This document shows positions 1,375 to 10,198 of a stretch of 10,198 bases of DNA, piece by piece. Source of the DNA: a virus (lineage: Duplodnaviria; Heunggongvirae; Uroviricota; Caudoviricetes); IMG/VR virus record IMGVR_UViG_2531839473_000010, positions 1 to 10,198 of that record. One strand, 5' to 3'. How positions within the stretch are numbered: the stretch's first letter is position 1; each line of letters opens with the position of its first letter. Under the pieces are notes generated by a model that saw nothing but the letters and a program-made list of their open reading frames with translations, had not been told where the DNA came from and did no database searches. Made by a program: the position numbers and the translations under genes.

Positions 1375-1719
1375 TTAGTCCTTGCGTAGCTCGCTGATTC
1401 TTCTGTAAGTCTCTGGTGCTTTGTTTCCGTGTATCTTCATTTCAGACTTCAACAGAGCAACGAGGGAATCCCATTCGTTGAGGATTCCTTTGAATGCCGG
1501 AACGCGCTTTGCAACCTTGTTGAATGAATCTCTGATTTCTGGAATCTGCTCAACAAGTGCAACGCATCGTCTGAAATCGGCTGCGTCATGGGGAGCGCCG
1601 AAGTGATGACCATAGATATTCTTTTTCAGTCCACATGCGATTGAGGCAAGAGTTGCGCTACTGATGCCAACATCGCCAGTCGATTGCCATTTCAAAACCT
1701 TCATAGCCAAATCTGACAT
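1375..1719 (-). CDS. Hypothetical protein (114 aa), ea/b-region accessory gene
   Basis: Intact ORF, ATG with GGAG 9 nt upstream, co-oriented with neighbours. No family recognised from sequence. Confidence 0.55.
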   Translation of the reverse strand: MSDLAMKVLKWQSTGDVGISSATLASIACGLKKNIYGHHFGAPHDAADFRRCVALVEQIPEIRDSFNKVAKRVPAFKGILNEWDSLVALLKSEMKIHGNKAPETYRRISELRKD

Positions 1720-1791: not shown

Positions 1792-2076
1792 TTATTCATT
1801 GCCGATATTCACCTTTATCGCGAACACCTTTACCGGTTTATCGCCGAAGTGCGGATGTGTGATTGTCTTGATTTCATATCCGTCATACGGAACATCAATT
1901 CTACGGCTGGAATCGTCGCGCTTCGGATATCCCTTTGTGATAATCAGGCGGTCATACTCCCTGAACATAATTCGCTTATTCCAGTAGTCATTACACAGGC
2001 GATACTCTTCCGTTTTCTCTCCGCGAATGATGGCATCGAAGTATTCACCTTTAACGGCTAGTTGCAGGTTAGCCAC
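1792..2076 (-). CDS. Hypothetical small protein (94 aa); possibly an ASCH/PUA-like fold
   Basis: GTG start at 2074-2076 preceded by AGGAGG at 7-nt spacing. Starts 2 nt after the stop of the upstream Ea22-like gene. Fold assignment is a weak impression from size and composition only. Confidence 0.55.
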   Translation of the reverse strand: MANLQLAVKGEYFDAIIRGEKTEEYRLCNDYWNKRIMFREYDRLIITKGYPKRDDSSRRIDVPYDGYEIKTITHPHFGDKPVKVFAIKVNIGNE

Positions 2077-3037: not shown

Positions 3038-3334
3038 TCAGTCATTACTGATAGCGCCATAGCGTGAGCGGTAATTACGCAGGCGCGGGTCGATATATTC
3101 AGGGAAGTTGGTATATGTGGCTTTGCGGAATGGTCGGATTGATGTTTCGTTTATTCGGTCTTTTTCCTGTTTTTCTGCGAGTTGTATATCGCGTCGGTAC
3201 TTCCGTTCTGCTTTTGTTTCTGGTGGCAGAGCAAGAAACGCGTCGAGATTATTCTTGATATTTTCCAGCACCTCCGATACGGAATTGCCGGAACAGCGGC
3301 GCGGGTCATCCGCACCATACAAAGGCGCTGGCAT
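3038..3334 (-). CDS. Hypothetical protein (98 aa)
   Basis: ATG with GGAG at 7-nt spacing, starting 17 nt after the exonuclease stop. Basic and charged; no family recognised. Confidence 0.5.
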
Positions 3335-3350: not shown

Positions 3351-3899
3351 TTATTTAGCTAACTTTTTCCAGATCGCTGAAACGTATTTGGCTTGGTGGA
3401 TGGCATCATCAAGCGCGTTGTGGCGAGTTCCTTTGAATGGCATATCTCGCTTAGGGTCGAATCCTATTACCTTTCCAAGCTCGACGATTGTTCTTACGTC
3501 GCGGTCATTCCACCACTGCCACGGAACTGGCTGCCCTGTCAGCGAATAACTGTTTCGGAGAATAACGCAGTCAAATGATGCTCCATTCCCCCAAACCTGA
3601 ACGAATTTGTGGTTAGCGTTCTTTATGATGAATTCAGATAACCATGAAAGAGCCGTTGAAAGCTCCTGAGTGTTGCTGGTTAGCGATTTTCTGGCTTCTT
3701 CACTCTGTTCCATCCACCATAAAATCGTTGAAGCGTCAGGACGCGCTCGATATCGCATTGATGACTCAAGCGAGATATTTACCGAGAACTCTTCTCCTGT
3801 TTCTCCGGTATTCGGGTCAAAGAATACCGCCCCAATAGAAATAACTGGCGCGTATGGCTCGTTGACCATTGTTTCAAGGTCAACCATCAAGTGATTCAT
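3351..3899 (-). CDS. DEDDh-type 3'-5' exonuclease (182 aa)
   Basis: Motifs consistent with the DnaQ-like fold: VDLETM (motif I, D-x-E), WGNGASFD (motif II), HNALDDA (motif III, H and D). AAGGA ribosome-binding site. Part of the recombination gene cluster. Confidence 0.75.
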   Translation of the reverse strand: MNHLMVDLETMVNEPYAPVISIGAVFFDPNTGETGEEFSVNISLESSMRYRARPDASTILWWMEQSEEARKSLTSNTQELSTALSWLSEFIIKNANHKFVQVWGNGASFDCVILRNSYSLTGQPVPWQWWNDRDVRTIVELGKVIGFDPKRDMPFKGTRHNALDDAIHQAKYVSAIWKKLAK

Positions 3900-3907
3900 G
3901 TAAGTCC

Positions 3908-4387
3908 TTAAATTGCGTGAATAGCGTGACGAGGGAAGGGGAGGGTTACTGGTTCCTCGTCTGGGTAGATAGGTTTGTTATGTTTGTGCCACTCGACATG
4001 GCATGACTTGCAGAGCCACATCACATCGGTTGGTTTGCTGTAGTCGCAGTGGTGCGCCTGTGGTTTACATTCTGATCCGCAGCACTCACATTGTGGTGGT
4101 CGGATTAGCTTACCGTCGCGCAAAAAATTACCCACAATGATGTGGGCTTTTCTTTTCCATGGGTTGCTCTGAATGAACCGCTTTTTGGCTGCGTTACACC
4201 GTTCTCTTCCGCGTTCCGATGATTGATATTCTCTCCTTGCTGATACTCGATGTGGCAATCCAGCGCGTTCTTTGTCGTATTCAGCCAGGCAAGCCCGGCA
4301 AGCGGCAGTTAATCCATCTCTGGATGCTCTTCTGATTTGAAATTCCCTTTCTTCCTTCTGTTGATGGCATCTTGAGCAGATTTTCAT
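3908..4387 (-). CDS. HNH endonuclease-like zinc-binding protein (159 aa)
   Basis: C-terminal CECCGSECKPQAHHCDYSKPTDVMWLCKSCHVEWH fits an HNH motif with Cys pairs. N-terminus has a further CxxC...CxxC zinc-ribbon pattern. GGAG ribosome-binding site. Confidence 0.7.
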   Translation of the reverse strand: MKICSRCHQQKEEREFQIRRASRDGLTAACRACLAEYDKERAGLPHRVSARREYQSSERGRERCNAAKKRFIQSNPWKRKAHIIVGNFLRDGKLIRPPQCECCGSECKPQAHHCDYSKPTDVMWLCKSCHVEWHKHNKPIYPDEEPVTLPFPRHAIHAI

Positions 4388-4396
4388 ATTCAGCTC

Positions 4397-4870
4397 CTAG
4401 AACGGAATATCCGAATCGTCGAAGTTCATAGGTGGTTCGCTGTGATTTCCCTGCTGCAGAGGTTGCTGTCTTTGTTGCTGACCGTTATTTCGCTGAGGTG
4501 AAGACTGTTCATTGCCTCCTTGCTTGCCACCAAGCATTTGCATGGTTCCACCAACGCCTACGATAACTTCGGTAGTGAACCTATCCTGTCCGCTTTGATC
4601 CTGCCATTTTCTTGTCCGTAATTTGCCTTCAAGATAAACCTCTGAGCCTTTTCGCAGATATTCGCTGGCAATTTCTGCCAGTTTCCCGCTCATTACCACT
4701 CGGTGCCACTCCGTCTGCTCCTTTTGCTCTCCAGTTTGCTTATCACGCCATTGTTCTGACGTAGCAACTGTAAGGTTTGCAAATGCCGTTCCTGATGGTG
4801 AATATCTGATTTCTGGATCATGCCCAAGGCGACCAATAATGATCACCTTATTTACGCCTCTGCTTGCCAT
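4397..4870 (-). CDS. ssb: Single-stranded DNA-binding protein (157 aa)
   Basis: OB-fold N-terminal region ([43 protein letters not shown]...TEWHRVV), Gly/Gln-rich linker and the acidic C-terminal tip DDSDIPF characteristic of bacterial and phage SSB. Confidence 0.9.
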
Positions 4871-5578
4871 TTATGCCGCCTGTTTTAGTTCGTTAACTCT
4901 GATGTTCATTACCTGAACGCATTTAGCCTGCGCCTCCTCGTTGCCAGCCATTAATTGCCAGTCACGCTGATAACGCTCGATGAGTTTTTTCTTGTCAGTT
5001 TCTGTTGAAGCATAATCGCTGAAGTCTTTCAGGATTTGTTCGCAGTCAACCGATGGAGATTTCTGGTTGGTATTTTCTGGTGATGGTTTGTTATCTGATG
5101 CTGGGATTGCCCATCCCGGCAGCGATGGAGGGAGCCAGTAAAATCCTGTTCCATCCTTCAGTTTTGCCCTGTGCCACCCCTGCTTTTTATCGAGAGATGT
5201 TTGTGCGAAACCTTCCTCAAGGTTATACAGATACCGACCGATTCCCCACTGAACGGCAGCACGCTTCATTGCACCTGAACGACCACCTTTGACGGCTTCT
5301 ACCTGCGTGTTTTCAGCAGCATCCCATTTGGTTACCCATTCGGAATCAATCTTGATTGATATGCCGCATTCAACTCCGCCGTTGTTGGGAATATCGCGGT
5401 ATTCATTGCGCCATCCTGCTTTGCCGCAAACATCGTCCAGGCGTTTCATGATTGCCCGGTTCGTGACATAAGCCAGCACCATAGCCCACACCTTGCCATC
5501 GCGTGTTTTACCGCTTTGCTGTATTCGCCATTCGATATCTTCAGGGCTGAATGGCTCATCGAATTTATTCAAATCCAT
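4871..5578 (-). CDS. Single-strand annealing protein, Rad52/Sak-like family (235 aa)
   Basis: Lies immediately upstream of ssb, with its stop abutting the ssb ATG (TAAATG). The N-terminal region (GKVWAMVLAYVTNRAIMKRLDDVCGKAGW) resembles Rad52/Rad22-type phage recombinases as recalled; it is not lambda Bet or RecT-like to my eye. Confidence 0.6.
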   Translation of the reverse strand: MDLNKFDEPFSPEDIEWRIQQSGKTRDGKVWAMVLAYVTNRAIMKRLDDVCGKAGWRNEYRDIPNNGGVECGISIKIDSEWVTKWDAAENTQVEAVKGGRSGAMKRAAVQWGIGRYLYNLEEGFAQTSLDKKQGWHRAKLKDGTGFYWLPPSLPGWAIPASDNKPSPENTNQKSPSVDCEQILKDFSDYASTETDKKKLIERYQRDWQLMAGNEEAQAKCVQVMNIRVNELKQAA

Positions 5579-5586
5579 AATTCACC

Positions 5587-5757
5587 TCAGAATGGACATG
5601 GCCCAAGGAAATAACGCTGATTTAATACTTCGACTCGGGACAAATTAAGGCATACCCGCATTCCTTCGCGGTCACCATTATGGCGATACCAGAGAGCTTT
5701 CTGCGTGTACATGCGTCTCTGTAACTTGCTCTCCTTCACTGTGGTTGCAAGTGACAT
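5587..5757 (-). CDS. Hypothetical small protein (56 aa), MSLATTVKESKLQRRMYTQKALWYRHNGDREGMRVCLNLSRVEVLNQRYFLGPCPF
   Basis: Below the ORF-track length cutoff; read manually. ATG at 5755-5757 with GAAGGAG about 7 nt upstream. Its stop lies inside the ribosome-binding site of the downstream annealing-protein gene. Confidence 0.4.
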   Translation of the reverse strand: MSLATTVKESKLQRRMYTQKALWYRHNGDREGMRVCLNLSRVEVLNQRYFLGPCPF

Positions 5758-5836
5758 GAATATCTCCTTCGTTACCGATTAAATCTTTCATCTGACGAAT
5801 GAATTCTTCGTCTGACCAGTTATCTGTAAAACTCAT
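5678..5836 (-). CDS. Hypothetical small protein (52 aa), MSFTDNWSDEEFIRQMKDLIGNEGDIHVTC..., overlapping the previous ORF by 80 nt in another frame
   Basis: ATG at 5834-5836 overlaps the kil-like stop as ATGA. Either a genuine overlapping gene pair or one gene split by a frameshift. Confidence 0.3.
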   Translation of the reverse strand: MSFTDNWSDEEFIRQMKDLIGNEGDIHVTCNHSEGEQVTETHVHAESSLVSP

Positions 5837-5985
5837 TTCCTGCGATACCACGGAAGGTTGATAGCTGATTTCATCGCTTTATTTGCTTCAAGCCACATTT
5901 TTGAATCACCAATAAATCGGGCTATTACTGCTTTGTTCTGTGCAGCACGAAGCATCTGGTGATTGATGGCTATTTCATTGCGCAT
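5833..5985 (-). CDS. kil: Kil-like small protein (50 aa), candidate FtsZ/cell-division inhibitor
   Basis: MRNEIAINHQMLRAAQNKAVIARFIGDSKMWLEANKAMK... resembles recalled lambda Kil (motif IATFIGDEKMF). GGAGG ribosome-binding site at 4-5 nt spacing. Overlaps the 3' end of the cIII-like ORF as kil and cIII do in lambda. Confidence 0.5.
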   Translation of the reverse strand: MRNEIAINHQMLRAAQNKAVIARFIGDSKMWLEANKAMKSAINLPWYRRK

Positions 5986-6104
5986 AACGCCTCCAGTTGT
6001 TTCTTTGCTGCTCTGATTAATTGTTTTACTCGGCGTGATAATTCAGATTCGTGCGGGTAGAAAGCGGACATGACGCCGCTACCCGCGAGCTGAAAGTGCA
6101 TCAT
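5970..6104 (-). CDS. cIII: cIII-like small protein (44 aa), candidate FtsH inhibitor
   Basis: MMHFQLAGSGVMSAFYPHESELSRRVKQLIRAAKKQLEAL aligns by eye with recalled lambda cIII (MQYAIAGWPVAGCPSESLLERITRKLRDGWKRLIDIL). AAGGAG ribosome-binding site at 7-nt spacing. Synteny cIII then kil then recombination genes matches lambda. Confidence 0.5.
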   Translation of the reverse strand: MMHFQLAGSGVMSAFYPHESELSRRVKQLIRAAKKQLEALCAMK

Positions 6105-6179
6105 GGGTAACTCCTTATATTTGATTGCATAACGAAAACGCCTCGAGTGAAGCGTTATTGGTATGCGGTAAAGCCGCGC

Positions 6180-6491
6180 TTAGGCGGCTGATGTTTCTTC
6201 TTTCAGGCTTTCGAGATATTTACGTGGGTCGTCGTAACATTGGCATTCGCTGTACCAATCCACCCAGCGATCAGTAAGCCCCATCTCTGATAAATCTTCA
6301 TCGGTAAGGCTCTCATCCCACATCTCAAGGCCGTTAGCATTGCAGTAATCAGGCTTGATGTTGTTGTCATACTGAAAGGCATCATAATCAGCCAGTGCAT
6401 CCATCAGGCGAACACCCTCTTCAACACTTGCCACTTCTACAATGAACGGCTTCATAGGTACTTGCGGGATATGCCAGACACGTAATTTCAT
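6180..6491 (-). CDS. Hypothetical strongly acidic protein (103 aa from the ATG at 6491; the tool ORF is 121 aa)
   Basis: The internal ATG at 6489-6491 has GGAGG at 6-nt spacing immediately after a terminator-like hairpin. Protein MKLRVWHIPQVPMKPFIVEVASVEEG...DESLTDEDLSEMGLTDRWVDWYSECQCYDDPRKYLESLKEETSAA is rich in Asp/Glu. No family recognised. Confidence 0.55.
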   Translation of the reverse strand: MKLRVWHIPQVPMKPFIVEVASVEEGVRLMDALADYDAFQYDNNIKPDYCNANGLEMWDESLTDEDLSEMGLTDRWVDWYSECQCYDDPRKYLESLKEETSAA

Positions 6492-6503
6492 ATATCCTCC
6501 GTC

Positions 6504-6530
6504 AAAAAAATCGCCCTCACATTGGAGGGC
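6504..6530 (-). terminator. Candidate intrinsic terminator (tL-like) between the 207-aa ORF and the acidic ORF
   Basis: Minus strand reads GCCCTC-CAATGT-GAGGGC followed by GATTTTTTTGA. Perfect 6-bp GC-rich stem and a 7-T run. Confidence 0.5.
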
Positions 6531-6592
6531 AAAGAAGATTTCCAATAATCAGAACAAGTCGGCTCCTGTTTAGTTACGAGCGACATTGCTCC

Positions 6593-6620
6593 GTGTATTC
6601 ACTCGTTGGAATGAATACAC
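6593..6620. repeat. Perfect 9-bp inverted repeat GTGTATTCA-N10-TGAATACAC in the intergenic region downstream of the 207-aa ORF
   Basis: Seen directly in the sequence. No adjacent T-run on the minus strand, so it is not a canonical terminator for the operon; possible protein-binding site or RNA processing hairpin. Confidence 0.5.
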
Positions 6621-6664
6621 AGTGCAGTGTTTATTCTGTTGTTTATGTCAAAAATAAAGGCCGA

Positions 6665-7288
6665 CTATGCGGCCTCGGAAGGAAGTCCAATCATCTTATT
6701 CAAATCTTCTACCCGTAAAGCAGGAAGTGCTGTACTTGCTTTATCTGCTTCTTTTGGTAGCAATTCTTTGCTTTCAGGCCAAACCTCAATAAGTCGCTTA
6801 ACTGTTGTGACTGAGTTCAAAGCAGCCCATACATTTGATTCGATATCATTTTTCTTGGCTTCAAGTTTTTGTTGCAATGCGCAGATTTCATCAAACCTTT
6901 TTGTTATTTCGTGTTCTGCGCTAAACATGCATTTATCTTTTTTCGGAGTAGGGAGCAATATATCTTCGCCGTTGCCGTCTTTCCCATATGAATGCCATCC
7001 AACCCTTCTGCCAGATACAGTCAGATAAATTGAAGTAGAACGAACATCGTATGAGTAAAATGAACATCCCAGTTTTTCAAGTTCTTCACTTATAGCTACT
7101 AACTTGGAATATAAATGATCCACTTCCTCAGTTTTCTTTTTACCGCCAAACGCAATAACTCTGGCGTCAAGTGCAAGCTGGTTCTTTAACTTTGTTACTT
7201 CTTCAAGTTCAGTGAAAACCCCAGACTTAATTAAATCGTTACGAGCGATTTCCTCTTTCATTCTCGTAGTTAAGCGGATTGATGACAT
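6665..7288 (-). CDS. Hypothetical protein (207 aa from the ATG at 7288; the tool ORF is 227 aa), uncharacterised accessory gene
   Basis: The ATG at 7286-7288 has GAGG about 8 nt upstream. Lys/Glu-rich with predicted helical segments; no catalytic motif recognised. Occupies the ral/ea10 position of lambda, divergent from the sieB-like gene. Confidence 0.6.
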   Translation of the reverse strand: MSSIRLTTRMKEEIARNDLIKSGVFTELEEVTKLKNQLALDARVIAFGGKKKTEEVDHLYSKLVAISEELEKLGCSFYSYDVRSTSIYLTVSGRRVGWHSYGKDGNGEDILLPTPKKDKCMFSAEHEITKRFDEICALQQKLEAKKNDIESNVWAALNSVTTVKRLIEVWPESKELLPKEADKASTALPALRVEDLNKMIGLPSEAA

Positions 7289-7432
7289 ATTAATTCCTCT
7301 CAAATAAGTGGTTTGCTGCCTAATTTCATTTTCTGGCGACCAACACAAGTCACACCCATTTCACTGCGTGGCTTGCGGTAGTAAAGATTGTGCCTGTCTT
7401 TTAACCACATCAGGCTCGGTGGTTCTCGTGTA

Positions 7433-7483
7433 CCCCTACAGCGAGAAATCGGATAAACTCTATTCACCCCCTACAGAGAGAAT
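7433..7483. repeat. Two direct repeats CCCCTACAG(C/A)GAGAA(A/T) spaced 35 bp, just upstream of the sieB-like start
   Basis: Copies at 7433-7448 and 7468-7483 are 14/16 identical. They lie in the 210-bp divergent region between the 207-aa ORF and the sieB-like gene; candidate regulator binding sites or promoter element. Confidence 0.45.
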
Positions 7484-7498
7484 GATGGAGATTCACCG

Positions 7499-8038
7499 AT
7501 GAGTAACTGGTGGCAGGAACTATTACGTTTCTTCCTGCGTGGTCTTACGCTACAACAGTTAATTCATATGCTTATTATTTTAATTGCCTTGATAATAATC
7601 ACCCCTGCATCAATTAAAGAGTGGGTAGATATAAGGAACCCAGAAATACTTCCAGATCACTGGATGTATTACGCAATGCTTTTGTGTATCAGTTATGTTC
7701 TGAACAGGGTGATGGAGTTTATATTTCTGGCATCTTCAGACAGATATAAAAAATATCTCAGTAAGAGAGATGAGGCTAAAGTAATTGTGGAGACTGAGCG
7801 CCTGTTCAATTCTCTGAGTATTCAGGAAAAAGAGGTTTTAGCATTTGCTGTTATGGCAAATAACAAAATCGTACTTAAGCACGGCGATCCGGTCGCTTTA
7901 TCTCTTATGAGAAAAGGCCTTCTCCATCGCTCAGGTGTGACTTACAGCGCGTCAGGTAAAGAGAAATTTGTTATACCTGACGTCTGGTTCCATGAGTGTT
8001 ATATGCGCTTTGCTGGTAAAGCTGATGAGCTAATTTAG
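7499..8038 (+). CDS. sieB: SieB-like superinfection-exclusion membrane protein (179 aa)
   Basis: The only plus-strand gene inside the leftward operon, convergent with and immediately adjacent to the N-like gene, as I recall for lambda sieB. Two hydrophobic helices (LIHMLIILIALIIITPASI and YYAMLLCISYVLNRVMEFIFLA). Assignment rests on synteny and topology, not on recognised sequence identity. Confidence 0.5.
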   Translation: MSNWWQELLRFFLRGLTLQQLIHMLIILIALIIITPASIKEWVDIRNPEILPDHWMYYAMLLCISYVLNRVMEFIFLASSDRYKKYLSKRDEAKVIVETERLFNSLSIQEKEVLAFAVMANNKIVLKHGDPVALSLMRKGLLHRSGVTYSASGKEKFVIPDVWFHECYMRFAGKADELI

Positions 8039-8059
8039 TTCCTCGACGGCGGGGGATCG

Positions 8060-8332
8060 TCACCTCGCTGTCAGTTGTTTTGATTTCCGGTAGCCTGCCG
8101 CGTAAAGAGCTACGTTCGGAAGACAAGTTGAGCCTTCATATTTTCTGGTCAACGTTGTCAGTGTTATTACTTCTGCTCTCATTGCTGGTTTGCGCTTGCA
8201 TTGCAAGACCACTCGTGAAGGGGTTGGCCTGTGTAGCTTGTCGGAGCTGATCGCCTCCTGACTTTGCAGATTTGCACGACGAGCTCTACGGCGAGAAGCT
8301 GCGGTGCCTTTAAATTCTGTTTTTCTGGACAT
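8060..8332 (-). CDS. N: N-like transcription antiterminator (90 aa from the ATG at 8332; the tool ORF is 114 aa)
   Basis: N-terminal arginine-rich motif GTAASRRRARRANLQ. C-terminus ...LPNVALYAAGYRKSKQLTAR resembles the P22/phi21-type N proteins as recalled. GGAGG ribosome-binding site at 5-nt spacing. First gene downstream of the predicted PL and nutL. Confidence 0.7.
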   Translation of the reverse strand: MSRKTEFKGTAASRRRARRANLQSQEAISSDKLHRPTPSRVVLQCKRKPAMRAEVITLTTLTRKYEGSTCLPNVALYAAGYRKSKQLTAR

Positions 8333-8430
8333 GGATTCCTCCCGAATAAACTTTGGCGATGCAATCTCGAAGCCCCTCCTGAGAGGGTTGCTTCGGCATT
8401 GCATCCCACAGCTTATGTGGTTGGGTGATC

Positions 8431-8478
8431 TGGCTTTTCAGCCACGTAGTCGAGTGTTCGACGTTGTTTAAAGAGCAT
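8431..8478 (-). promoter_or_regulatory. Candidate nutL site: boxA, spacer hairpin, boxB
   Basis: Minus strand reads TGCTCTTTAAACAAC (boxA-like; compare rrn boxA TGCTCTTTAACAA), then hairpin GTCGA-ACAC-TCGAC, TACG, then TGGCT-GAAA-AGCCA (boxB-like stem-loop with a GAAA loop). Same architecture as the candidate nutR. Confidence 0.6.
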
Positions 8479-8522
8479 GCCAGTCTGTTCCGTTTGGCTT
8501 CCAGCTTCCTGCTGATGGCTAA

Positions 8523-8598
8523 ATAGTACGATGTGTACTTTACTGAGTCAATACAAAATGTTCTAAATATGGTTTAGTTTTTTATAACGCTTTGTATT
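8523..8598 (-). promoter_or_regulatory. Candidate PL promoter with three OL operator sites
   Basis: Minus strand -35 TTGACT (plus 8546-8551), 17-bp spacer, -10 TACTAT (plus 8523-8528). Fifteen-bp sites on the plus strand: AGTACGATGTGTACT (8525-8539, perfect 5-N5-5 palindrome), AATACAAAATGTTCT (8550-8564) and ATAACGCTTTGTATT (8584-8598). All share AC-N5-GT spacing with the OR sites. Confidence 0.45.
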
Positions 8599-8616
8599 TT
8601 ATTGATTTATATTTTG

Positions 8617-8645
8617 GAAAAAGAAAACCCGACGCTAAGGTCGGG
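8617..8645 (-). terminator. Intrinsic terminator downstream of the repressor gene
   Basis: Minus strand reads CCCGAC-CTTAGC-GTCGGG followed by TTTTCTTTTTCC, beginning about 30 nt after the cI stop. Confidence 0.55.
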
Positions 8646-8677
8646 TTATTGTTGTGTGTTTTAGAGTGGTGAGGCTG

Positions 8678-9337
8678 TTAACTAAATGTCTCTTCAGGCC
8701 ACTGGCTGGCGATAACTTTCCCTACTACGGAACAGCTATCATTGCATGGAATCATTGGATATTGCGGGTTTAGTGGTTGTAGGAACACCTGACCGCTATC
8801 CCTGATCAGTTTCTTGAAGGTAAACTCGTCACCACCAAGTCTGGCTATGCAGAAATCACCTGGCTCAACAGCCTGCTCAGGGTCAACGAGAATTAACATC
8901 CCGTCAGGAAAGCTTGGCTTGGATCCTGTTGGCGCGGTCATGGAATTACCTTCAACTTCAAGCCAAAACGCACAATCACTGGCTTTTTTGGTTGTGCTGA
9001 CCCATCTCTCCGCATCACCTTTGGTAAAGGTTCTAAGCTCAGGCGAGAACATCCCAGCCTGAACATGAGAAAAAACAGGGTACTCATATTGTTTTTTAAC
9101 GGGGGCAGATGAGTATTCGCCAACAGGTGAAAATGTACCGTCGTGGTTGAATGAGACGTTATCAATACCAAGGTATTTAAACACCACACCAATCTCGTCA
9201 AGAGATGGATGACGATATCCGCGCAACCAGTGACCAATTCCACCCTGCGTCATACCAAGCTCTTCAGCTAACTTCTCTTGAGTTATGCCGAGCTCTTTCA
9301 TTCTGGATCTAGCCAGTTCATACCATTTCATTTTCAT
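8678..9337 (-). CDS. cI: cI-type prophage repressor (about 219 aa from the ATG at 9337): HTH_XRE N-terminal domain plus LexA/S24-like autocleavage C-terminal domain
   Basis: The C-terminal segment from [38 protein letters not shown] through [88 protein letters not shown] matches recalled lambda cI almost exactly, including the Ser/Lys dyad. The N-terminal DNA-binding domain ([44 protein letters not shown]...) is not lambda's. The tool start at 9499 would extend into the operator region; the ATGs at 9337 and 9331 are more plausible. Confidence 0.85.
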
Positions 9338-9346
9338 ACCCTTATT

Positions 9347-9421
9347 ATTACGCTCTGTACTAAAATCATCCATGCACAAGATGTATTTTTGTTTGCATTC
9401 TAAAAGTACATATCGTATTAT
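9347..9421. promoter_or_regulatory. Candidate OR operator cluster with PR promoter (PRM not resolved)
   Basis: Sites ATTACGCTCTGTACT (9347-9361), TGCACAAGATGTATT (9373-9387, weaker) and AGTACATATCGTATT (9405-9419). Plus-strand PR: -35 TTGCAT (9393-9398), 17-bp spacer, -10 TATTAT (9416-9421), about 20-nt leader to the cro-like ATG. The last site overlaps the -10, as expected for an OR1-type site. Confidence 0.45.
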
Positions 9422-9447
9422 TGCGTTATGATTACTATGGAGGGCAT

Positions 9448-9663
9448 ATGAGCAACCTACGAAAATATCGAGAGTCACTGAATATCTCTCAAACAACACT
9501 TGCTAAGGCAGTTGGATGCACACAGGGAGCTATCGGACATTGGGAATCTGGTCGTCGCTTCCCAGACCTTAAAACATGCCGTGCTCTTGTTGAGTGCCTA
9601 AACAAGTTAGGCGCAAAAGTCAGTCTTGATGACGTGTTCCCGCCGGAACACAAAGCTGCTTAA
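9448..9663 (+). CDS. cro: Cro-like HTH_XRE regulator (71 aa from the ATG at 9448)
   Basis: Divergent from the repressor across the operator region. GGAGG ribosome-binding site 4 nt upstream. Its helix-turn-helix ([22 protein letters not shown]) closely parallels the repressor's ([22 protein letters not shown]), consistent with shared operators. Confidence 0.7.
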
Positions 9664-9673
9664 TAAGCGGATC

Positions 9674-9719
9674 CGCTCTTTGTAACAACGGACATTCGTC
9701 CTACGTCGCTGAAAAGCGA
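9674..9719 (+). promoter_or_regulatory. Candidate nutR site: boxA, spacer hairpin, boxB
   Basis: CGCTCTTTGTAACAAC (boxA-like), hairpin GGAC-ATTC-GTCC, TACG, then TCGCT-GAAA-AGCGA (boxB-like). Begins 11 nt after the cro stop. A perfect palindrome AGCGGATCCGCT (9666-9677) overlaps the 5' edge of boxA. Confidence 0.6.
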
Positions 9720-9763: not shown

Positions 9764-10198
9764 TGAACCGCCCCGGGTTTCCTGGAGAGTGTTTTATCTG
9801 TGAACTCAGGCTGCCAGATCATTGTTTCCGATGGAAGCATAATAAGCTTTTTCTGCTTCTGCCGGAGGAGTATGGCCCAGCCTTCCCAGCAATCGTCGAT
9901 TGTTATACCAGTCCACCCACGTGAGTGTGGCCAGTTCCACTTCTGCACGGTTTTTCCAGCTCTTACGGTGTATTACCTCCGCTTTGTAAAGACCATTGAT
10001 GCTCTCAGCCATCGCGTTGTCATACGAGTCGCCTGTACTCCCTGTTGATGCCAGCAGTTTTGCTTCTTTTAGTCGCTCCGTATAGGCCAGTGACACATAC
10101 TGAGAGCCTTTATCGCTGTGATGGATGGTGCCAGACGGACGACGGGCCCAGAACGCCTGCTCCAGCGCATCCAGCACGAATGTCGTTTCCATAGACGA
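9764..10198 (-). mobile_element. IS3-family insertion sequence, partial (one end only; continues past the window edge)
   Basis: Terminus TGAACCGCCCCGGGTTTCCTGGAGA starts at 9764 with the TG typical of IS3-family ends, and resembles the recalled IS629/IS3411-type inverted repeat. It contains the 3' part of a transposase gene on the minus strand. Confidence 0.75.
9806..10198 (-). CDS. IS3-family transposase OrfB (integrase-core/DDE domain), C-terminal part; 5' end lies outside the window
   Basis: IHHSDKGSQYVS..., DSYDNAMAESINGLYKAEVIH... and WVDWYNNRRLLGRLGHTPPAEAE are the hallmark of the IS3-family OrfB catalytic core C-terminus. The reading frame runs to the window edge. Confidence 0.85.
   Translation of the reverse strand, partial: SSMETTFVLDALEQAFWARRPSGTIHHSDKGSQYVSLAYTERLKEAKLLASTGSTGDSYDNAMAESINGLYKAEVIHRKSWKNRAEVELATLTWVDWYNNRRLLGRLGHTPPAEAEKAYYASIGNNDLAA

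Follow-up and report, generated by a model that had tools for sequence, protein, structure and literature searches.

Lambda Ral, a protein of 66 aa, acts on type I restriction-modification. In lambda the genes around ral are arranged in the order cIII, ea10, ral, sieB (plus strand) and N. The gene described here occupies the same genomic slot between the same conserved flanks, and would share the pL- and N-dependent expression inferred for ral, whereas its product is 207 aa long and gave no Ral-family match. It belongs to the family of Pfam PF18757, whose full name is "Nucleotide modification associated domain 5" (Nmad5).

Experimental data on Nmad5 concern Dhillonvirus only (PMC11846954). Dhillonvirus mutants that escaped the defence system Tmn carried K296E (or K216E) in nmad5, and Tmn sensitivity returned when the nmad5 mutation was reverted (PMC11846954). 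Deletion of nmad5 gave viable phages that did not escape Tmn; as escape was obtained by substitution and not by deletion, it was read by the authors as a gain of function (PMC11846954). Dhillonvirus nmad5 could not be cloned, for which the authors blamed toxicity (PMC11846954); the cloning failure is equally compatible with a protein that attacks a host process. In a 2026 preprint, the T2 early protein RIIB was described as directly activating Tmn (PMC13001434), and this direct sensing makes a protein-level contact between Tmn and Nmad5 plausible. In the M6-like phage SN1, Nmad5 is listed in a thymidine-hypermodification cassette (PMC9476957).

Gene content of the window

The stretch of DNA analysed (10,198 nt, referred to throughout as the window) corresponds to the early-left arm of a lambdoid prophage. 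Genes were assigned as follows:

1-1074, int
1052-1339, xis
2069-2884, Ead/Ea22-like gene
3038-3334, Abc2 (anti-RecBCD)
3351-3899, Rv2179c-like exonuclease
4397-4870, SSB
4871-5578, Rad52-like annealing protein
5833-6104, kil and cIII
6180..6497, minus strand, P22 gp17-family gene at the lambda ea10 position (Pfam PF17420, E 7.8e-56)
6665..7288, minus strand, gene for an Nmad5-family protein (ORF, Pfam PF18757, PHROG 1965, AlphaFold2 model)
7301-7296, minus strand, ribosome-binding site GAGAGG (read from the sequence; 7 nt spacing to the ATG at 7288)
7499..8038, plus strand, sieB (superinfection exclusion B), convergent with the pL transcript (Pfam PF14163, PHROG 1301, lambda-like arrangement)
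8060..8404, minus strand, antiterminator N gene (Pfam PF25694, E 2.5e-32)
8678 to about 9340, cI
9421-9663, cro

The order in this region is cIII, gp17, the Nmad5 gene, sieB (plus strand) and N. A preliminary description, made from the sequence of the window, had placed the gene in the ral slot between N/sieB and cIII-kil, and the comparison with lambda confirmed this, the position being exactly that of ral. No base-modification genes were found within the window by Pfam scan.

The 207-codon gene is real, and the coordinates and good ribosome-binding site first assigned to it were borne out. The reading frame runs on the minus strand from an ATG at 7288 to 6665 and encodes 207 aa (ORF list). 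The first start listed for the same frame is a TTG at 7348; since the homologues of the 207-aa protein all begin MSSIRLT, the ATG at 7288 was taken as the true start. The gene product has a mass of 23.3 kDa, a pI of 6.4 and a net charge of about -1, and the G+C content of the gene is 39%, low like that of sieB and many morons. A DNA mimic was considered and rejected on the basis of this pI and charge.

Family assignment and distribution

The 207-aa protein was matched end to end by the Nmad5 profile (residues 4-203 against positions 1-206 of 206; E 2.5e-70; 237.2 bits, cut-off 27) and was also matched by PHROG 1965, a family annotated as being of unknown function. The RefSeq label for the protein is "Nmad5 family putative nucleotide modification protein". 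The earlier statement that the protein has no recognisable family was thus overturned: the gene is an unremarkable member of a phage family that is widespread and already has a name, and its position too can be found in public annotation. Weak Pfam matches to YfjL_C and P4Ha_N fell below their own cut-offs and were disregarded. These two and Nmad5 were the only families matched in the Pfam scan at E up to 0.1, with no similarity to the Ral family among them. Scans of the protein against NCBIfam, and against the PADLOC defence-family models at E up to 0.1, returned no match.

Near copies with 94-98% aa identity over all 207 residues, and with the same C-terminal module (described below), were found in mEp235 (gp37, YP_007111613.1; 95.7% identical), HK244 ('HK24401') and E. 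coli NRG 857C (WP_000095077.1). These copies lie in the same place, between N (or sieB, Nun) and cIII/kil in early-left operons, and differ from the window in their neighbour cassettes alone (sieB and gp17 in the window, Nun and cIII in mEp235). Copies within the same identity range are also present in Stx1a- and Stx2a-converting phages and in many IMG/VR prophage contigs.

Complete E. coli genomes were surveyed for the gene and for its flanking sequence. The gene was present in 211 of 5426 genomes, while the flanks were found in 2236, most of which have ral or other small ORFs between them; it is therefore an accessory gene and not a core one, as had been proposed. In the Stx2a-converting phage of locus L106, an IS3-family element removes the 5' end of the gene, and the other Stx2a records listed gave the same N-terminally truncated match. 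The disruption in L106 likewise suggests that the phage can do without the gene.

The family as a whole is large. A profile search returned 2295 cluster representatives (50% identity) at E 0.001 or better, and nearly all of the best 150 of these 2295 are stand-alone proteins of about 190-230 aa.

Flanking sequence

The gene had been described as bracketed by unusual non-coding elements, with a 210-bp region holding two direct repeats upstream and a perfect 9-bp inverted repeat plus an intrinsic terminator downstream, and these had been read as a sign of a self-contained, separately regulated module. The following elements were located:

6532-6511, minus strand, second terminator-like hairpin, 8-bp stem then T7, upstream of gp17 (terminator scan, fold)
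6583..6630, minus strand, long hairpin that contains the perfect 9-bp inverted repeat (repeat search, lambda alignment, RNA fold)
6676-6657, minus strand, terminator-like hairpin with the TAG stop in its loop, followed by TATTTTT (terminator scan, sequence, lambda alignment)
7366..7482, plus strand, conserved lambdoid segment upstream of sieB with two CCCCTACAG repeats (lambda alignment, repeat statistics)

All of the elements themselves exist. The gap between the Nmad5 gene and the start of sieB (7499) is 210 bp long (7289-7498), and contains CCCCTACAGCGAGAA at 7433-7447 and CCCCTACAGAGAGAA at 7468-7482, that is, two 15-nt copies of the pattern CCCCTACAG(C/A)GAGAA that begin at 7433 and 7468. 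Two copies of the 9-mer CCCCTACAG are present in the window, where 0.01 would be expected, and none of 200 shuffled sequences reached two copies, so the repetition is non-random. On the other side of the gene, the inverted repeat GTGTATTCA / TGAATACAC extends to arms of 22 nt (6583-6604 and 6609-6630). A 193-nt intergenic RNA over these downstream elements folded with -64.8 kcal/mol (z = -5.6 against shuffled controls). No match was found in a scan of the whole window against Rfam at E up to 0.1.

The interpretation of these elements did not survive alignment with lambda. Positions 7366 to about 7455, including the first repeat, are identical to the lambda ral-sieB intergenic region, and lambda also has the second CCCCTACAG core; by sequence comparison, the segment 7366..7482 is part of the sieB and backbone side and not of the Nmad5 cassette. 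Downstream, window positions 6497-6660 align with the lambda ea10-ral intergenic region with almost no mismatch, both hairpins and the terminator T-run included. The hairpin at 6532-6511 differs from lambda by one base, the distal half and T-run of that at 6676-6657 are common to lambda, and the hairpin stretch at 6583..6630 is unchanged across lambda and three E. coli loci. The two hairpins are presumably members of a lambda-type tL2 terminator cluster; such a cluster reportedly lies between bet and ral in lambda (Luk and Szybalski).

The flanks are also near-identical in E. coli loci where ral or unrelated ORFs lie between them, and loci with identical flanks bear ral in this very slot. Because they are near-identical to lambda and enclose unrelated cassettes, the flanks are a common backbone for cassette exchange, and not regulatory parts of an Nmad5 module. 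A self-contained module with its own regulatory elements was rejected on this ground, the flanks being lambda sequence that is common to other cassettes. What the alignments show is a cassette exchange, which has put an Nmad5 gene at the ral position of a lambda-type pL operon between conserved flanks.

Transcription and neighbouring genes

A promoter scan of positions 5900-8700 gave a single sigma-70-like site, a pL-like promoter at 8551-8523 on the minus strand, which was assigned together with a nutL-like site by analogy with lambda:

8431..8551, minus strand, pL-like promoter (8551-8523) and nutL-like site (promoter scan, boxA search)

The nutL-like parts are a boxA, TGCTCTTTA, at 8477-8469 and a boxB-like hairpin at 8444-8431. 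No sigma-70-like promoter for the Nmad5 gene was found on the minus strand of 7289-7498 by the simple consensus scan used, which could miss a weak or activator-dependent promoter.

Gene neighbourhoods were compared in a sample of 80 loci whose gene is 94-98% identical. In 76 of them the gene is preceded by a homologue of N on its own strand, and in 45 of these 76 it starts 15-65 bp after N. The downstream neighbour differs among the 80 loci. A link to sieB had been proposed from their adjacency in the window; among the 80 loci, sieB adjoins the gene in just 5 and gp17 in 4, and an obligate partnership with either was rejected. The gene for Ral itself stands in tandem upstream of the Nmad5 gene in 10 of the 80.

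By analogy with lambda, the gene is most likely an N-dependent passenger of the pL operon that is made in lytic growth. It would have no promoter of its own: antiterminated by N, a transcript begun at pL would cross N and then, in antisense, sieB before reaching the gene. Expression would take place early in lytic growth and after induction, with repression in the lysogen. For the two hairpins after the gene, the same analogy points to ordinary terminators of the operon, at which RNA polymerase modified by N would not stop.

Predicted structure and conserved residues

A structure was predicted with AlphaFold2 from an alignment of 59 sequences. The model was confident (pLDDT 90.8, pTM 0.79) and consists of three long helices (8-72), a small beta-sheet (about 83-122) and a further long helix (127-158), after which W170-P-E172 lies on two short helices. 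The tail from about residue 181, which includes a short helix at 194-200, was modelled with low confidence. Comparison of the model with BFVD by Foldseek gave a best match with E 5.4e-13 and a TM score of 0.75, and the matches with E 0.001 or better either carried the name Nmad5 or "nucleotide modification associated domain" or were unnamed conserved phage proteins. Structure comparison thus led to the Nmad5 family again. No analogue of the model was found among solved structures, and when the single protein and the 59-sequence profile were each searched against the sequences of solved structures, all matches were at chance level (best E 0.027).

Conservation was scored over an alignment of 195 family members with a threshold of 90% or more. 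Residues conserved at this level were R5, I14, R43, G48, G93, T162, L166, W170, P171, E172, E175, L176, P178, P189, L196, N197, G201, L202 and P203; position 18 also passed the threshold, as alanine, and is Asp in the window protein. These positions cluster in the last 45 residues. The C-terminal signature (T162, L166, W170-P-E172, E175-L, P178, L188-P, L196-N197 and G201-L-P) is present in full in the window protein, and its residues are 87-99% conserved over the 195 aligned members. The corresponding module can be written T-x-K-[RK]-L-x-x-x-W-P-E-x-x-E-L-x-P ... L-P-A ... L-N-x-x-I-G-L-P. Among the residues conserved in the 195 members there was no set of His, Asp, Cys, Ser or Lys of catalytic type and no nucleotide-binding motif.

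The tail is highly conserved from about L188 despite the low confidence with which it was modelled, a pattern typical of a docking peptide, and the tail may be one. Because the conserved set is not catalytic in character and the tail is conserved though of low confidence, a non-enzymatic binder is suggested.

Comparison with Dhillonvirus Nmad5

The Dhillonvirus proteins (SM_S22 CDS0006, SECphi18 gp24) also fall into PF18757, whose profile they match in full (E 1.3e-57), and share with the window protein the module T-x-K-[KR]-L-I-x-x-W-P-E ... L-N-x-x-x-G-[IL]-P. They are longer, at 254 aa (334 aa in the SM_S22 annotation), and BLAST similarity to the window protein is confined to the C-terminal 100 residues (33% identity). 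K296 of SM_S22 aligns with R165 of the window protein, which is inside the conserved module, next to the invariant L166 and just before W-P-E; this position is R or K in 156 of the 195 members. The genomic settings differ, as Dhillonvirus nmad5 lies on the opposite strand in a head-morphogenesis module and the window gene in an early operon.

Homologues in other phages

Beyond the lambdoid phages, the homologue records include many isolated lytic-type phages (N4-like Pollock, YuA-like phages, Dhillonvirus). The Pollock homologue stands in the replication module between thymidylate synthase and a gp42-like exonuclease, near DNA polymerase, exonuclease and primase. YuA gp15 (186 aa; Pfam E 4.2e-56) is of similar size to the window protein and is encoded in an early/DNA-metabolism region, right behind a 5-hmdU DNA kinase and near a dUMP hydroxymethylase. 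In metagenomic and temperate contigs, homologues were found near helicases, DNA polymerase A, Rv2179c-like or RNase T-like exonucleases and SSB, and also near MT-A70 or Dam methyltransferases (adjoining the homologue in L100, L101 and L092) and genes for 2-aminoadenine genomes (PurZ-type, adjoining it in L102). The contexts of L098, L099 and L104 hold replication or recombination genes only. In Dhillonvirus and in locus L103, the homologue is beside portal and head-morphogenesis genes. The position of the gene is fixed in many Dhillonvirus and YuA-like records.

An association of the family with DNA metabolism is drawn from these settings, because homologues adjoin genes for polymerase, exonuclease, kinase, helicase, SSB and methylase; a single role in DNA metabolism is not secure, because the family occurs in several modules, including that for head morphogenesis (Dhillonvirus, L103). 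The association with modification genes, from which the family name comes, is seen in YuA and in M6/SN1, where Nmad5 lies beside hypermodification genes, and is absent from the lambdoid copies in the window and in mEp235. This association is contextual, and membership of the window protein in Nmad5 is unaffected by it.

Possible functions of the lambdoid Nmad5 protein

We favour, tentatively and at somewhat less than even confidence, a reading in which the Nmad5 protein is dispensable, is made early and, without catalytic activity, acts as an adaptor in the metabolism or protection of phage DNA. It would be a non-enzyme, a helical scaffold that presents the conserved C-terminal module with its flexible tail, and this module would dock on a partner from phage or host DNA metabolism, such as the replication, recombination, nuclease or DNA-modifying machinery. 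The protein would thereby be an accessory that aids or protects newly made phage DNA, and not an exclusion gene expressed by the prophage. The latter had been the reading of the preliminary description, in which the gene was the best candidate for exclusion or defence, alone or together with sieB. Several features of the window are in keeping with it: the gene has sieB on one side and, on the other, a member of the P22 gp17 "superinfection exclusion" family, its G+C content resembles the low values of sieB and many morons, and the Dhillonvirus homologue was uncloneable. We nevertheless hold a prophage-expressed exclusion gene to be highly improbable. The gene is on the pL strand with no promoter-like site of its own in the consensus scan, its neighbours sieB and gp17 are rarely retained, PADLOC gave no match, an IS element breaks the gene in Stx2a-converting phages, and homologues occur in many lytic-type phages, near replication, nucleotide-metabolism and head genes.

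A counter-defence function comparable to that of Ral, in which the early protein would neutralise or evade host immunity by binding or by promoting a protective DNA modification, is a more serious rival, although we consider it somewhat unlikely. The slot and flanks are those of ral, the gene directly follows N in most loci, its distribution is patchy as for an accessory gene, and members of the family often adjoin methyltransferase and base-modification genes. In addition, one substitution within the conserved module of the Dhillonvirus protein permits escape from Tmn and deletion does not (PMC11846954). A simple substitute for Ral is harder to reconcile with the loci in which ral and the Nmad5 gene stand in tandem, as these show that the two are not simple alternatives. 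No similarity was found to Ral or to the PADLOC models, the pI of 6.4 is not acidic like that of DNA mimics, and the fixed position of the gene in many Dhillonvirus and YuA-like records is atypical of counter-defence genes. Participation in a DNA base-modification pathway, for example as a specificity or targeting subunit, is what the Pfam and RefSeq names suggest, and the YuA and SN1 cassettes (PMC9476957) and the PurZ-type and methylase neighbours agree with it. For the lambdoid protein we regard such a role as quite unlikely, since the complete genome of mEp235, with its 95.7% identical gene, has no annotated base-modification or methyltransferase gene, which means that the "nucleotide modification" of the family name does not describe the lambdoid copies. 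The window also has no such genes, the conserved residues are not of catalytic type, and many contexts hold replication or recombination genes alone.

These elements may be combined in a wider proposal, which we offer as speculative and rather unlikely as a whole. Nmad5 proteins would be non-catalytic modification or protection adaptors that use the conserved C-terminal docking module to recruit DNA-modifying or DNA-processing enzymes to new phage DNA, the enzymes being phage-encoded in hypermodifying phages and host-encoded in lambdoid phages. At the position of ral, such an adaptor would be a second factor that alleviates restriction as Ral does but has another target, and the same surface, formed by R165 and W-P-E, would be read by, or would block, host sensors such as Tmn.

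The value of this locus as a discovery is small: gene, family and position had all been annotated publicly before, and the flanking elements belong to the lambda backbone. Nmad5 is however a large family of temperate and isolated lytic-type phages that was recently linked to escape from Tmn, and the lambdoid copy, which lies in the well-understood ral slot and has both ral-carrying and IS-disrupted relatives, would offer a clean genetic system for the function of Nmad5.

Sequences flanking Nmad5

The 60–75 bp directly 5' of the Nmad5 start codon (window 7289-7365) are common to E. coli ETEC1703 (locus L004, about 3404-3480), where the gene behind them is a 156-aa hypothetical gene unrelated to Nmad5. 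Because this common stretch starts just upstream of the Nmad5 ribosome-binding site, a mosaic junction falls essentially at that site. On the other side of Nmad5, the intergenic RNA between the ea10/gp17 and ral/Nmad5 positions (window 6498-6664, minus strand) folds into three hairpins with strong structure (z = -5.6); its sequence is near-invariant between lambda and E. coli prophages, and nothing matching it was found in Rfam. Lambda (locus L006, about 1630-1680) also keeps the CCCCTACAG repeat pair that precedes sieB (window 7433-7482), and in it the second copy lies 4 nt ahead of the sieB start codon.

Four more ORFs of the early-left operon in the window had no match in Pfam:

1375-1719, minus strand, ORF without Pfam match
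1792-2076, minus strand, ORF without Pfam match
3908-4387, minus strand, ORF without Pfam match
5587-5757, minus strand, ORF without Pfam match

One of them encodes a Cys-rich 159-aa protein, its gene lying between the exonuclease and SSB genes.

Nmad5 in other loci

The commonest identifiable gene downstream of Nmad5 (15 of the 80 loci) encodes a 322-aa hypothetical protein; the copy in E. coli NRG 857C had no Pfam match. In two unrelated phage groups, Nmad5 was found outside the early and replication modules, adjoining portal and Mu-F-like head-morphogenesis genes, a placement that the proposed role in DNA metabolism leaves unexplained.

L002 (E. coli NRG 857C) 1465-2433, 322-aa hypothetical protein gene in the ea10/gp17 position
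L103 5001-5582, Nmad5 beside portal and Mu-F-like genes
L008 3533-4297, Nmad5 beside portal and Mu-F-like genes
L105 (phage SM_S22) 5005-6009, annotated Nmad5 ORF, 334 aa

The annotated SM_S22 ORF shares ~200 nt with the head scaffolding gene, and its product exceeds the 254-aa SECphi18 homologue by 80 aa. The start of this ORF is probably annotated too far upstream, which would account for the Tmn paper (PMC11846954) giving both K296 and K216 as residue numbers.

Insertion sequences

In the Stx2a-converting phage Stx2_3725 (L106), the 5' end of Nmad5 has been removed by an IS3-family element, leaving a 152-aa remnant ORF. The remaining Stx2a-converting phage records among the matches listed show this same Nmad5 match, with residues 1-33 missing. 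The L106 element closely resembles the one right of cro in the window.

L106 238-2025, IS3-family element region and Nmad5 remnant
L106 1125-1451, IS3-family orfA
L106 238-1128, IS3-family orfB
Window 9421-9663, cro
Window 9674-9682, boxA-like site, nutR-like
Window 9806-10198, minus strand, IS3-family transposase, C-terminal part

Since the transposase part sits just right of cro and the nutR-like boxA, an insertion sequence appears to have broken the rightward early operon, which may make this a defective prophage.
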